Below are positions 48,551 through 64,000 of a DNA stretch of 64,000 bases, piece after piece. Each line of letters begins with the position of its first letter. Position 1 is the first letter of the stretch. The notes under the pieces were generated by a model that was not told the origin of the DNA, ran no database searches, and saw only the letters and a list, made by a program, of their open reading frames with translations. The translations under genes were made by a program, and so were the position numbers. Origin of the DNA: Eledone cirrhosa (taxonomy: Eukaryota); NCBI GenBank assembly GCA_964016885.1, contig OZ024741.1, positions 155,930,001 through 155,994,000 of the forward strand, written 5' to 3'.

Positions 48551-48608
<58 letters not shown>

Positions 48609-48701
48609 CCAAAAGTTAAACAAGGTTCATTGACTAATCAATGAATAAAGTTTTACAATAGATTAGAAGAACTCAACATTGAGGTTTTCTGGAGTTATTA
48701 A

Positions 48702-48974
48702 TATTAATTCATAATATTAATAAATATAGACATTCATGTGATCAAATATATTTTATTATATATATTTCAGAGGTACTGTGCTGTTTCCTCAGTACGTCCT
48801 CATTAGATGGAAGTGCCAAGACTGGAATTGAACCATCAGCACAGTTGAGGTATGTCAGACATCAATTTATTTTATCTGATGAGGACGTACTAAGGAAACA
48901 GCCCAGTCCCTCTGAAATATATATAATAAAATATATTTCATCACATGAATGTCTATATTTTTCTATATTTTGAA

Positions 48975-48980
<6 letters not shown>
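48702..48980. repeat. Inverted repeat (arms about 105 bp, spacer about 65 bp)
   Basis: atatagacattcatgtgat..tttcagagg..gtacgtcctcattagat / atctgatgaggacgtac..cctctgaaa..atcacatgaatgtctatat. Confidence 0.9.
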
Positions 48981-49049
<69 letters not shown>

Positions 49050-49177
49050 CCAATATATTGAGAAACACACAGATACATGCGGACACACACATATACATGA
49101 ATATATCCACATCCATCCTTGAGTTAATGGTGCCTACCTTAACCGAGACGTGTTCTTGAAGCTAGTAAAATGAGGTA

Positions 49178-49267
49178 TCCTCTTGATAAGTTGGCAGACC
49201 TCACAAAAGCTCTATATCTCTATGATGTATTGTTTTTGATTATGCCACGAAACTACGTAGTCGAGGA
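49178..49267 (+). ncRNA. Type I hammerhead, U3-A8 core variant, copy 1
   Basis: TCCTC-TTGATAA-GTtGGCA...TGCCAC-GAAA-CTACGTAG-TC-GAGGA. Confidence 0.8.
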
Positions 49268-49770
49268 ATCTAGAATCATTTTAGGTATGATACATCTTAT
49301 TACTAATTATATCTAAATGTTTCTACTCTCTTCATAATGTACTTTTAGCTCTGATACTGTTTCAGTCTAATCCATTCGGATTGGTTTGTCCCAGTTATTC
49401 ATAGAGCAACATCGGTTAAGGTTGGCACCATTAACTCAAGGATGGATGTGGATATATTCATGTATATGTGTGTGTCCGCATGTATCTGTGTGTTTCTCAA
49501 TATATTGTTTATAACTCCCCCTGGTCGAGTAATCTTTGAAGTGTAGTGACTGCTGAAAAGCTGCCATTACTCATACTTCTCGCCCCCTTAACCACCTCTT
49601 CTACGGCCTCGATATAAATACCCCCTCCGCCTCCGTGGTATTTTTTCAGGGTTATAAAGGGCTTAGCTCTGTTTCTTGACCGTTGTATCACGTGACTGAC
49701 TCCCCCTCCGCCTTTTGGGATTCTATCTCACATCTTATAGACGTGTTCTTGAAGCTAGTAAAATGAGGTA

Positions 49771-49860
49771 TCCTCTTGATAAGTCGGCAGACCTGACAAA
49801 AGCTCTATATCTCTATGATGTATTGTCTTTGATTATGCCACGAAACTACGTAGTCGAGGA
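49771..49860 (+). ncRNA. Type I hammerhead, U3-A8 core variant, copy 2
   Basis: TCCTC-TTGATAA-GTcGGCA...TGCCAC-GAAA-CTACGTAG-TC-GAGGA. Confidence 0.8.
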
Positions 49861-49929
49861 ATCTAGAAGCAGTTTAGGTATGATACAACTTATTACTAAT
49901 TATATCTAAATGTTTCTTCTCTCTTCATA

Positions 49930-49965
<36 letters not shown>

Positions 49966-50184
49966 GTGAGAATATATATATATATACATATATATAGAGA
50001 GAGAGAGAATTAGTATATCTACCAACATATGCGTACAGATGTACACTAATGTTAGCAAATACATAAGTTATGTCATAGTACCTAGGTGGTTCAATGCAGG
50101 AGGATGCAGAACAATAATATGAAAGACGTAAAATAAGAAAAATAAAAAAAAAAATTAAAAATTAACTTACTTACTAAAATTTTC

Positions 50185-50266: not shown

Positions 50267-50589
50267 CTATTCTCAGCTAAGTCTCCAGGCAATGCGCGGA
50301 CACTAGGGACTCATATAAAATATATATATATATATATGTGAGAACATATATATATATATCGTTTTTTTCCCGTTCTTTGCCAGCGAACGTTACCACGAAC
50401 CAAAGTATCGTCTTCTTGTCTTCCTCCGGTTGCAACGTTTTTTGAAATATCCAGTTCTGCGTTTACAGATTGACTTTGTTAGTTTCAGAAGATCCCGTTA
50501 AGGGTGAAAGCAGCGATTCTTTGCTTAAATTTTAATCTGTTATTTTAATAAATATGTGTGTATATATATATATATGTGTGTGTATATAT

Positions 50590-60094: not shown

Positions 60095-63000
60095 TTTCTT
60101 TATTAACCACAAGGGTTTACATAAAGTAGACATTAAGGACAGTGCAGGACAATGCAGGACGGTACAAATGGGCATTTCTGCGTGTAAAAAAACAAAAACA
60201 GAGGATGTAACAAAAATAACAATGAAAATAACAATGAAAAATTCCCCAATAGGGGGGAGACTTCGGAGGGACATTTGTGGAGAAAGCCCAGTAAAAAGCC
60301 ACAATGACCCTGACCACCAAGGCAAGTGCCCTCTCCCAGTTTTCCACCTTTAGTTTACAGATATATACTCAGAGTCGGCCCATTCACTCGGGCCATTCTT
60401 GCTTCTCTCACCCATCTTTCAACAAAATGCTGGGAAGAGAGCACTTCCTTCTCTACTCTGATTTTCCTTTTCAAATGAAATTTGAAAAAGTCAATCAGAG
60501 CATCACCGAAGAGGTAAGTGCTCGTCTTCAGCCCTTTCAAACGTGTCCACCATACTATCTCTTTCGCCATGGCCACCAGACAGATAAAAACTGCCTGCCC
60601 TTCCCGGCTAAAGGAGGAGGGCGGGGCAATCCTCACGATAGACTCAGATGATAGCTGGATCCGTCCTAAACGCGACAGCAGGTGTTCGACATAAACCCAC
60701 AAGTCAGCAATTTTCGGACACTGGACGAGTGCGTGCAGGACGGTTTCGTCGCCCTGCGCGCATCTCGGACATGCCCGGCTGACGGCACCTCCATGCCTGT
60801 AGAGTTTATCCCGAACTGGCAAGGCTCCTCGGTAGCACTGCCAGGCCAGAGATTTCTGGAAGTTGTCCATAGGCCCTGGCCCGAAAGTTCTTCCGAAGAG
60901 ATTGGCTAGTTGATTTTCGTCGACGCCTAGAGTTTCCCCAAGTACGTCGTCGCTCTTCCCCTCCACTAATCCTCTATAGAACGCCGAGGTGGAGTTTCCA
61001 CCGATCACATTGCCCGATTGGTCGAGGGCTGTGAGCGCCTGAAGACATTCCAGTCTCCAGGCGCTCCCTCTCGGTCTTCGCTTGACCCAGGACTGCAGCT
61101 CCGTCAAGGAAACGAGCTGGGGAAAAACGCGTCTAGCAAACGGCGACCACACCTGATCACCGTCGAGGAAGAGGTGGAGATGTCGTAGCCTGAGCGCGTG
61201 CCTGCGCATCATCAGCCACGGCATGCCCAGCCCTCCACGTAGCGGGTGTTGACAACAGATGGACCGCCTGACCATCGGAGCACGTCCCTTCCACAAAAAG
61301 CGAAAGAGCAAACGCTCCAGCGCAGTCAGGCGAGGCTTAGGACAAGGTACGACGGTTAGGCGGTAGCAGATGACAGACGCGATGTACGCGTTAGCCACCT
61401 CCGCTCGACCTTTCAGGGATAGCTTCCTCTCCGCCCATTTCTGGGTGAGAGAAGCCACCCTGCTCGTCACCTCGTCCCAGTTTTTGTCCGTCTGGAGGTC
61501 CGGACCGAACCAGACCCCTAGCAATTTAACCGGTCCGTCCGTCCAGCGCCCGACGACGCTGTTGGACGGCATGGACCTGCCTCTCCAGGTGCCGAGCTGC
61601 AGGCCCACTGACTTTTCCGGGTTGATCATTGCTCCTGTCACCGCTTCGTATTCTCTTAGTGTAGTGCCGATCGCCTCGATGTGTTTGGCGTTCGACACCA
61701 CTACGGTGACATCGTCCGCATATGCTGACACGGATCTTCCGCATCCTAGTTCGCGCGGGACCCCCCTCAACGTCTCCAGTTTGTGCAGTAATGGCTCGAG
61801 AGTCAATACGTACAAGAGGGACGAGAGGGGACATCCTTGGCGGACCGAGCGCATGATGTTGAACGGTTCCGACAGGTGACCGTTCACTCTCACCACAGAG
61901 CAGATGTCGCTGTGCATGGCAGCGATCCAGCCTCTGAAGACGGGCCCAAAGCCAGCCGCCCTCAGGACTGCCGCTAGGTAACGATGGTCGACCCTATCGA
62001 AAGCTTTCGACTGATCTAAATTGATCAAGGACCCACCCGTGCCAGGTTCCCTAGCTACCCTCTCTACGATGTATCGCATGAGGTGGAGGTTGTCGTGGAT
62101 GGATCTGTCGGGAATGGCGCATGTCTGCGCCTCTCCCACCAGACCACCAACGACAAGCGCCAACCTCTTTGCTAGCACCTTGGCCAAAATCTTAAACTCT
62201 GTGTTTAGCAGAGTTATGGGCCGGAAATTTTCTATGTTATCCCCCTTGTTCGGATCCTTTCTCAGCAGTGCCACCGCTCCTCGGCTCACAGAACTGGGAA
62301 TTCTCCCGTTCTGTTGCCAGTTGCAGTAGACGTCCGCCAAGAGGCCTCCGAACAAGTCTGGCATCTGTACGTAAAGTTCATAGGGCAGACCATCCAAACC
62401 AGGCGATTTACCCCTTGTGCAGCCAGTCATTGCCTCCCGTACTTCAGCGGCTGTTATCGGCTTTTCGCAACACTTCGCCTCAGTGGCCGAGAGCCGCGGC
62501 AGTCCGTCGAGGTAGACACTAAAGTCCATCCCTCTACCCGGCCCCCCGCTGCCCCCGAACAGCTGAGCGAAGTGTCGCTGAAAAGCTTCACACATTTGCC
62601 CGGGATCGAGTAGCATGCGCCCGTCGTGGTCCACCAAAGACCGGATCGTGGCTTTGTTGCCACGACGCGCCTCCGCCACTCGGGCCCATTGAACGGCTTT
62701 CGTCCCCTCGTGTCTGAGAGCACGCACCCTAGCTCTGACAACGCAGCCTTCGTGCTTTGCATTGAAGAATTGGTCAAGGGCTAATTTCGCCGCAAGCACG
62801 TCGGTCGCAATGCCTTTGCTAAGCGCCTCGTCTAATTTTCTAACTAGTTCTCCCTCTGCTCTATTTTTCTCTATTGCTAAAGCCTTGCTAAACCTAATCG
62901 ATTCTATTCTAATCGCTCTTTTCAGAGCAAACCACCACTTGTTGTTGACGATGGCCCCCGTCAACGCCCGCTTAACTAGTTCGCTAATCCGGTCTCTGTA

Positions 63001-64000
63001 GGCCTTGCGCGCTGGTAAGGACGCGTTTAGCTTCCAGTAGCCGGGTCCTCGTCTATGAAGCCTATCTAAGTCAAGCACACAGATCACGAATTTGTGGTCC
63101 GTGTAGCTGACTATCTTGAATTGTGGACAGCCTATACTAGACCTATCTATTTCCCTACAAAATACTCTATCTAGATATGATCTGGATGACCCTATGCGGT
63201 TTGTCCAAGTCCACATTGGCACATTCGGGAAATCCAATCGGTACCTGTCAGACAGTTCAAAACGCCTGAGCAGGTTGGTGAGGCTCTTGCACCCTCCACC
63301 CCTATCCGCTAATCCCACACAGTCCCAGCGTGCATCTAAGATCCCGTTCCAGTCGCCCACTAACACTAAAGAGCGGGACGTTCCAAGAAAGGTCTCCAGA
63401 CGCCGGAAGAAATCAGACCGCCCTGCTCCTGTCGGGGCATAGACGGCCACTAGCCTGAAAGCTTGCCCGTCTCCGCTGGTCACGTCCAGCACCACCAGCT
63501 TACCCTCTGGGTCCAGGAAGATGGCCCGTATGGCGAGATCCAAACCTCTCCGAAAAAGCACAGCAACTCCTCCACCCGATCCAGGACGGCTGGGAGATGC
63601 GTACACATCGTAGCCGCCGAAGATCGGTGCGAAGGCCCGTGCTTCGGAGATTCTGGTCTCGCTGATGGCCACTACATCTATGTTTAGTGACCTGAGGTCG
63701 TTGAGCAGGTGACCCTGCTTCCATGACGACCCCAAGCCACGCGCATTTATGCTGCCTATTCTGAGTGAGGTCATGTTTAAAATAGAGTGGAAAAGATGGG
63801 AAAGACCACTTACCGTACTTTTGGTAGAGGAGGGATGGTTTTTACATCCCTTTTCACTTGATCGTCTGGTGAAGGGACCGTTGAATCGTCCCTTCGGCTG
63901 GTCGTCGGCTCTTCTAAGAGAATGTCTGAGTATACTCTTCGATTGATGGTTCCTCCTAGGTCCCTGAAATCACCAACTGCGTTGGGGAATTTCGTTTTAA
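60094..64000 (-). mobile_element. Tx1/L1-clade LINE with (ATT)n tail, 5' part runs off the window
   Basis: Intact ORF2; 3' end cccttgtggttaataaagaaatc(att)n abutting an (AAC)n(AAT)n tract. Confidence 0.95.
60355..63774 (-). CDS. Intact ORF2p: APE endonuclease, reverse transcriptase, C-terminal CCHC (1139 aa)
   Basis: INARG, ISET, GDWN, YLDR, YTDH, PGYWKLN, KSPGLDG, NFRPITLLN, LDQSKAFD, RQGCPLS, YADD, GGLG, CPRC-x8-H-x4-C; no stops. Confidence 0.96.
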   Translation of the reverse strand: MTSLRIGSINARGLGSSWKQGHLLNDLRSLNIDVVAISETRISEARAFAPIFGGYDVYASPSRPGSGGGVAVLFRRGLDLAIRAIFLDPEGKLVVLDVTSGDGQAFRLVAVYAPTGAGRSDFFRRLETFLGTSRSLVLVGDWNGILDARWDCVGLADRGGGCKSLTNLLRRFELSDRYRLDFPNVPMWTWTNRIGSSRSYLDRVFCREIDRSSIGCPQFKIVSYTDHKFVICVLDLDRLHRRGPGYWKLNASLPARKAYRDRISELVKRALTGAIVNNKWWFALKRAIRIESIRFSKALAIEKNRAEGELVRKLDEALSKGIATDVLAAKLALDQFFNAKHEGCVVRARVRALRHEGTKAVQWARVAEARRGNKATIRSLVDHDGRMLLDPGQMCEAFQRHFAQLFGGSGGPGRGMDFSVYLDGLPRLSATEAKCCEKPITAAEVREAMTGCTRGKSPGLDGLPYELYVQMPDLFGGLLADVYCNWQQNGRIPSSVSRGAVALLRKDPNKGDNIENFRPITLLNTEFKILAKVLAKRLALVVGGLVGEAQTCAIPDRSIHDNLHLMRYIVERVAREPGTGGSLINLDQSKAFDRVDHRYLAAVLRAAGFGPVFRGWIAAMHSDICSVVRVNGHLSEPFNIMRSVRQGCPLSSLLYVLTLEPLLHKLETLRGVPRELGCGRSVSAYADDVTVVVSNAKHIEAIGTTLREYEAVTGAMINPEKSVGLQLGTWRGRSMPSNSVVGRWTDGPVKLLGVWFGPDLQTDKNWDEVTSRVASLTQKWAERKLSLKGRAEVANAYIASVICYRLTVVPCPKPRLTALERLLFRFLWKGRAPMVRRSICCQHPLRGGLGMPWLMMRRHALRLRHLHLFLDGDQVWSPFARRVFPQLVSLTELQSWVKRRPRGSAWRLECLQALTALDQSGNVIGGNSTSAFYRGLVEGKSDDVLGETLGVDENQLANLFGRTFGPGPMDNFQKSLAWQCYRGALPVRDKLYRHGGAVSRACPRCAQGDETVLHALVQCPKIADLWVYVEHLLSRLGRIQLSSESIVRIAPPSSFSREGQAVFICLVAMAKEIVWWTRLKGLKTSTYLFGDALIDFFKFHLKRKIRVEKEVLSSQHFVERWVREARMARVNGPTLSIYL

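Follow-up and report, generated by a model that had tools for sequence, protein, structure and literature searches.

A stretch of Eledone cirrhosa DNA of 64,000 nt (the window) contains, near position 49,500, two copies of a hammerhead-like motif in direct repeats with no long reading frame between them. This arrangement raises the question of what kind of element was inserted here, by which enzyme and from what form of RNA. We propose that it is one insertion of a high-copy, protein-free non-LTR retrozyme with a unit of ~590 nt and a predicted U3-A8 hammerhead, which was likely mobilised in trans by the reverse transcriptase (RT)/endonuclease of a Penelope-type element (PLE), a reading that we regard as probable. 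The further proposal, that each insertion is the fossil of a single monomeric RNA circle copied at once by the two RTs of a PLE dimer, is put forward more tentatively.

Architecture of the element

The direct repeat is formed by 49146-49341 and 49739-49934, two copies of 196 nt that are 96% identical, with a spacing of 593 and 8 differences, all of them private to the window's copies. The first-pass annotation had described two direct repeats of about 190 bp with hammerhead motifs 593 nt apart, and this description is confirmed. Each copy contains TCCTC (49178/49771), TTGATAA (49183/49776), stem II, GAAACTACGTAGTC (49249/49842) and GAGGA, and after GAAA the palindrome ACTACGTAGT provides stem III; the predicted cuts fall at a GTC site, after C49262 and C49855.

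The same annotation took the element for a candidate non-autonomous retrozyme. This stands, and the 196-bp repeats are the overlap of a 1.33-unit head-to-tail copy, that is, a partial tandem and not LTRs, in an insertion of Penelope-type anatomy. This direct arm (49146-49934, plus strand) ends at an inferred RT start site, A, and runs into (TA)n. Although the direct repeats had been recognised, the inverted arm, the (TA)n ends, the palindromic stem III and a possible pseudoknot had been missed. The inverted, 5'-truncated arm (49051-49146, minus strand) covers unit positions ~151-246, is 99% complementary to 49412-49507, and ends at a second inferred start site, B, followed again by (TA)n. The outer ends thus lie in (TA)n microsatellites at 48978-49048 on the left and 49930-49996 on the right, the flanks and presumed target of the insertion.

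The cut-to-cut monomer (49263-49855, plus strand; 593 nt), which is predicted to form a circle, has a GC content of 40% and a folding z of -3.65, better than 100/100 shuffles. Read as a circle its longest ATG frame is 48 aa, in agreement with the earlier statement that there is no ORF, and the RT + GIY-YIG ORF of an autonomous PLE is lacking. Directly upstream, at 48608-48975, there is another (TA)n-embedded inverted element with two unequal ends, which carries a decayed canonical CTGATGA hammerhead-like motif and has related pieces in 8 other loci.

Predicted fold of the ribozyme

The two predicted type I hammerheads (49178-49267, with U3 at 49183 and A8 at 49188, and 49771-49860; both plus strand) share the TTGATAA core, and the previously predicted cuts after C49262 and C49855 are compatible with a fold containing UUGAUAA in both repeats. 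Stem I is TCCTC/GAGGA; then come the core, a bulged stem II whose loop II forms a long hairpin, GAAA and the palindromic stem III. A relaxed descriptor, allowing any Watson-Crick 3-8 pair and scanned over the 64-kb window and 3,000 shuffled 593-mers, returned 2 sites in the window, both in this element, and 0 in the shuffles. The core agrees with the pattern N3-U4-G5-A6-N7-N8-A9 ... G12-A13-A14, A15.1-U16.1, H17, its Watson-Crick 3-8 pair being U3-A8, and the three helices stand in type I order, the proposed fold being paired in 98.4% of the cells of an alignment of 13 hand-picked rows vs 36-51% in slid controls; covariation of the ribozyme in the same 13 rows is not above that of shuffles (76-203 of 500).

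Rfam reports no hammerhead here, neither at the gathering threshold nor at E<=10. The core is less of a novelty than the first-pass annotation implied, since U3-A8 is, in the available text of PMC3088659, a natural covariation active in vitro, and, in that of PMC4209133, PLE hammerheads of Schistosoma contain it ~1,300 times. That searches overlook the motif may be due in part to the long loop II, the stem II/loop II region amounting to 58 nt. A pattern with the same stem III and a shorter loop II gave only 6 matches, all of them rearranged or deleted family copies, and the likeness of loop II to that of another PLE hammerhead (L152, window ~38,000) was not above shuffles.

Upstream of stem I the sequence TGAGGT (49171-49176, plus strand) can pair with ACCTCA in loop II (49198-49203), forming a conserved 6-bp predicted pseudoknot whose covariation is not significant. 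Its first pair is UA in 75 copies, UG in 86 and CG in 3; this change from U-A to C-G, the sole double change in the ribozyme, is confined to 3 loci, where a single event may account for it. In the second copy of the window G49795 breaks one of the pairs. Hammerhead pseudoknots of this kind are described as common elsewhere and needed for speed in the accessible part of PMC3088659.

Within one copy stem III has 3 bp and is unstable (+1.5 kcal/mol), while between two copies it has 10 bp and is stable (-12.9 kcal/mol); such a double-hammerhead arrangement appears in the available text of PMC4209133. For the monomer as a circle, folding predicts that stem I stays largely open (p<0.01), its GAGGA strand being paired instead with a site ~70 nt downstream (p~0.8), within a predicted long hairpin (49263-49333, plus strand) that precedes site A. 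This sequestration would shield a circle against renewed cleavage. With the pseudoknot left out of the energy, the active fold is 1.6-6.3 kcal/mol less stable than the minimum-energy fold.

Copies and subfamilies in the genome

A 19-mer spanning the cut has 7,681 exact matches in the 3.0-Gb genome and its reversed control 0. The matches often occur in runs spaced 587-595 bp, and the loci consist of tandem head-to-tail units, each with a predicted type I hammerhead and with up to five ribozymes in one arm; the tandem arrangement is therefore genome-wide and not unique to this locus. With regard to the conservation of TTGATAA, which the first-pass annotation had proposed to check, the 5' half-core with T3 has 7,013 matches genome-wide against 14 with another letter at position 3, of which 12 are single changes within the family and 2 (CTGATGA) come from a different family. 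A8 is present in 99 of the first 100 T3 matches listed. The full TTGATAA is found in 162/167 copies of the fetched loci, a count that leaves out 8 loci fetched for deviating at position 3, and in 36/39 copies of an older subfamily whose loci were chosen through the interior of the unit. The family core is thus TTGATAA and not CTGATGA, and since U3 is family-wide the variant core is not a product of decay. The two CTGATGA matches come from another family, whose hammerhead is canonical and minimal, and homology does not show them to be ancestors. In an older family (L157-L176; ~85% identity) the minimal hammerhead has the canonical C3-G8 pair; its stem I leader resembles that of the window family, and the two also share a short motif downstream.

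Three subfamilies can be distinguished, 75-88% identical to each other, whose loci are alike at 98%, 97% (the window's) and 92%. Between the subfamily majorities only 1/53 ribozyme columns differ vs 156/540 elsewhere (p=1e-6), a figure to be taken with caution as most copies were found via ribozyme motifs; the single differing column keeps its pair as U-G. Within the family no selection signal at U3 was detected beyond that at the unconstrained N7, rare variants numbering 12 and 14, respectively. Variants at both positions being about equally common, the conservation is a between-subfamily signal only.

The family was also found, together with the A and B ends, in independently assembled public contigs (one sample, library kind unrecorded), which answers the concern about an assembly artefact.

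Two fixed ends of the insertions

We mapped 112 insertions, drawn from the 30 best window matches, the first 100 motif matches on one contig, the 8 position-3 variants, 29 old-subfamily loci and L131, taking one locus per insertion from the contig matches and removing five duplicate loci. The arms stop at two fixed places, A ~80 nt and B ~246 nt past the cut, ~166 nt apart, and TA-rich DNA lies beyond 143/162 arm ends. The 5' ends are scattered, in the manner of 5' truncation, and the length of the repeat varies from insertion to insertion. In the window A corresponds to 49334-49341 (plus strand), which is read through at this position and terminal at 49934, and B to 49500-49513 (plus strand), after the second predicted hairpin, where the direct arm again reads through. 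Each of the two ends follows a predicted hairpin, and the 3' strands of these hairpins share a 15-mer (80% alike).

Single arms end at A in 25 cases, at B in 21 and at neither in 6. Among 61 head-to-head pairs both ends could be classed in 49, giving 48 A/B and 1 B/B (p=2e-13), and the insertion in the window obeys this rule of one A and one B. A motif-based recount of the inverted pairs gave A/B in 50/52, one of the two exceptions being probably a separate older insertion and the other having a non-TA flank. The two fixed ends and the A/B inversion are the Penelope 'tail' signature, and the further traits of a non-autonomous PLE, namely 5' truncation, an inverted arm, a tail at one end and a microsatellite target, are all present; the (TA)n context makes target-site duplications unreadable. 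The mutual exclusion of A and B supports an enzyme with two sites (a dimer), and by itself it does not support the circle.

Penelope-type elements and a possible partner

PLEs with RT + GIY-YIG domains are abundant in the genome (10,597 and 76,125 first-look candidates). In a small sample of 90 PLE loci (GIY-YIG 30 + 20, Hydra 30 + 10) no sequence in common with the element was found, any remaining matches being microsatellite-like only. At L131 the resemblance is due to an inserted copy of the family.

A young autonomous PLE of the Hydra type, whose 713-aa frames are intact and contain the linker CxCX5C of that clade, shows A/B-type ends in 9/9 head-to-head pairs, one convergent pair being left out, with a tail of ~86 nt. 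Only its age and behaviour make this family a candidate for the partner. It (L238-L277) accounts for the 76,125 first-look candidates, with 96-99% aa identity among the top matches, and the hammerhead-like motif of its pLTR appears to be CAGAAGA, with A at position 4. Fragments of its 3' end lie in the window at ~50361-50555 (plus), ~57668 (plus) and ~23665 (minus). A broken 3' part of a Hydra-type PLE occupies 37990-40100 (minus strand; frame 39012-39623) and has, near 38,000, a decayed canonical hammerhead-like motif with a long stem II. The window also contains LINE-type reverse transcriptase frames of two kinds, at 13916-17920 (plus), 31557-36450 (minus) and 60355-63969 (minus), recognised by eye in the translations.

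Template and mechanism

The arms cross the cut site precisely and reach ~2.9 kb (five ribozymes). Their 5' ends show no pile-up at the cut, with 3/176 vs 3.0 expected, and therefore the cleaved linear monomer was not the template. Units are 99.8% alike within one insertion vs 98.2% between loci. In 26 young multi-unit loci we found 78 non-majority letters fixed in all units of their insertion, 32 of which occur in fewer than two other young loci. Variants arising within an insertion were mirrored between the arms in 0/45 cases, the mirror unit being present for 23 and ~8 of the 45 looking like alignment-edge noise in one locus. From these patterns we infer a bottleneck of one unit, which would be best explained by a circular template. 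In one tandem insertion (L211-L212) a loop II deletion is common to both units, which is consistent with one template for both. A circular template has been proposed for PLEs in the accessible part of PMC4209133, and circles are reported for coral, mussel and axolotl retrozymes in that of PMC7229834.

Thus, we propose that a multimeric transcript would cleave itself, probably as a double hammerhead through the palindromic stem III and with the help of the loop II pseudoknot, and that a host ligase would join the monomer into a circle, in which the downstream hairpin would keep the ribozyme inactive. A PLE protein, probably a dimer, would then cut (TA)n DNA and use each of the two ends as a primer, once at A and once at B; by going round the template beyond a full unit it would generate the tandem and inverted arms. 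A PLE with two RT start sites, a tail and a predicted dimer is described in PMC11167929. That two RTs acted at once on one monomeric circle, starting at the hairpins A and B and making up to five turns each, is plausible on these grounds and is offered as a tentative proposal.

The same element and PLE enzyme could also have used an uncleaved linear multimeric transcript, with a hammerhead that is slow, protein-dependent or employed in another step, and with tandems that derive from tandem parents or from re-insertion into the element's own end. For the PLE of PMC11167929 unprocessed RNA was the main substrate in vitro and no RNA-seq reads ended at the cut, observations which favour a linear template, as does the mostly unformed stem I of the folded monomer; hammerhead mutants of that PLE were without effect on insertion in vitro, which speaks against a required ribozyme step. 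Moreover, a dimer bound to one A+B module explains the exclusion on any template. We nevertheless judge this route rather unlikely, as variants that are fixed in every unit and both arms and are rare elsewhere need a one-unit bottleneck, none of the 45 variants is mirrored even where a mirror unit exists, and the ribozyme has been kept through ~25% divergence. The bottleneck and mirror tests lose power if the source arrays were very young, and the same patterns could have arisen through local homogenisation, or from a linear multimer if its parents were very young.

Amplification at the DNA level, in which a satellite spreads by unequal exchange, slippage or circular DNA and bears a fossil hammerhead from a PLE end, would account for homogeneous arrays, as proposed in the available text of 10.64898/2026.07.22.740005, and for the lack of a within-family selection signal at U3; it seems very improbable for short dispersed insertions that have fixed 3' ends, scattered 5' ends and the A/B inversion seen in the autonomous PLE, and in which the ribozyme is conserved at the subfamily level. 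As for a decayed canonical hammerhead duplicated locally, or an artefact of assembly, we found nothing in its favour, the window's copies differing by their 8 private changes, and it is hardly credible when the 7,013 T3 copies stand against 0 family CTGATGA copies among the matches to the stem I pattern and when the family recurs in independent assemblies.

If the circle proposal is correct, the family would provide genome-scale evidence for the origin of Penelope-type tandem and inverted structures, and the mechanism could be examined in vitro on a 590-nt ribozyme substrate whose two start modules lie well apart.

Relation to known systems

Like the metazoan non-LTR retrozymes in the accessible text of Cervera and de la Pena 2020 (PMC7229834) and of Li et al. 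2026 (10.64898/2026.07.22.740005), the window family consists of protein-free tandems, from dimers to multimers, with one type I hammerhead per unit, GC <45% and co-occurring PLEs, and its unit length falls in the 51-972 bp range of the latter. It departs from them in U3-A8, in the 58-nt stem II/loop II and in a predicted pseudoknot replacing the loop-loop contacts, and its unit is longer than the experimentally shown retrozyme circles of 170-400 nt; (TA)n targeting, inversions and two fixed ends are not found for metazoan retrozymes in those portions of the two sources. In the available text of 10.64898/2026.07.22.740005, 8/9 Xenopus retrozyme dimers did not cleave, which, like the mutant result of PMC11167929, speaks against a required ribozyme step.

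With PLEs (Craig et al. 2021, PMC8557442; Frangieh et al. 2024, PMC11167929), whose pLTRs carry hammerheads and a 30-40 bp tail at one end, the family shares partial tandems, an inverted 5'-truncated arm, two fixed ends downstream of the cut and (TA)n targeting as in Hydra/Neptune/Naiad. In contrast to PLEs it has no ORF, its tail is ~166 nt vs 30-40 bp, and it shows no homology to the PLEs sampled. The hammerheads of the Schistosoma mansoni Cercyon PLE (PMC4209133) and the natural U3-A8 examples (PMC3088659) contain the same compensated 3-8 pair; as far as these source texts are available, the motifs of S. mansoni are of the minimal kind, differ among themselves and mostly occur singly, whereas the window family is homogeneous, young and tandem, and its stem III palindrome is complete. 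Plant LTR retrozymes resemble the window in having two hammerheads ~600-700 nt apart in direct repeats. In the accessible part of PMC7229834, however, they have type III hammerheads, true LTRs, PBS/PPT, 4-bp TSDs and GC >55%, as opposed to the type I fold, insertion-dependent repeat length and 40% GC found here, so that the element is not of the plant type.

The U3-A8 core and the view of non-LTR retrozymes as non-autonomous PLE sequences are already published, and the known core limits the surprise. In the literature searched (main texts, few subscription journals) we found neither a U3-A8 retrozyme of high copy number that combines a pseudoknot with a 166-nt tail, nor a count of the one-A-one-B kind, nor an octopus or cephalopod hammerhead or retrozyme family of this kind; among annotated repeats (Repbase/Dfam) the family may already have an entry. 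The available texts of PMC7229834, PMC11167929 and PMC8557442 leave open by which enzymes retrozymes of animals are moved and whether a circle serves as template for PLE-type elements. The present family ties a retrozyme to the PLE signature of two start sites with hard counts, its young near-identical copies make it directly testable, and it shows that, in a genome of animal size, Rfam overlooks putative ribozymes by the thousand.

A second U3-A8 family

A second, unrelated tandem family with a 322-nt unit has the TTGATAA core framed by different stems (29 TTGATAA vs 1 TTGATGA in 25 loci). The presence of the same core in unrelated stems argues that it is a real hammerhead variant, and with at least two families here U3-A8 retrozymes would, if the proposal is correct, be a large class overlooked by CUGANGA searches. 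The A/B rule is obeyed in 7/8 pairs, the ends being ~28 nt apart, and the family offers a simpler test case than the window's. It (L213-L237; first seen at L100:150-400, minus strand) has a compact predicted type I hammerhead with a palindromic stem III, (TA)n targeting and 3,318 first-look candidates.
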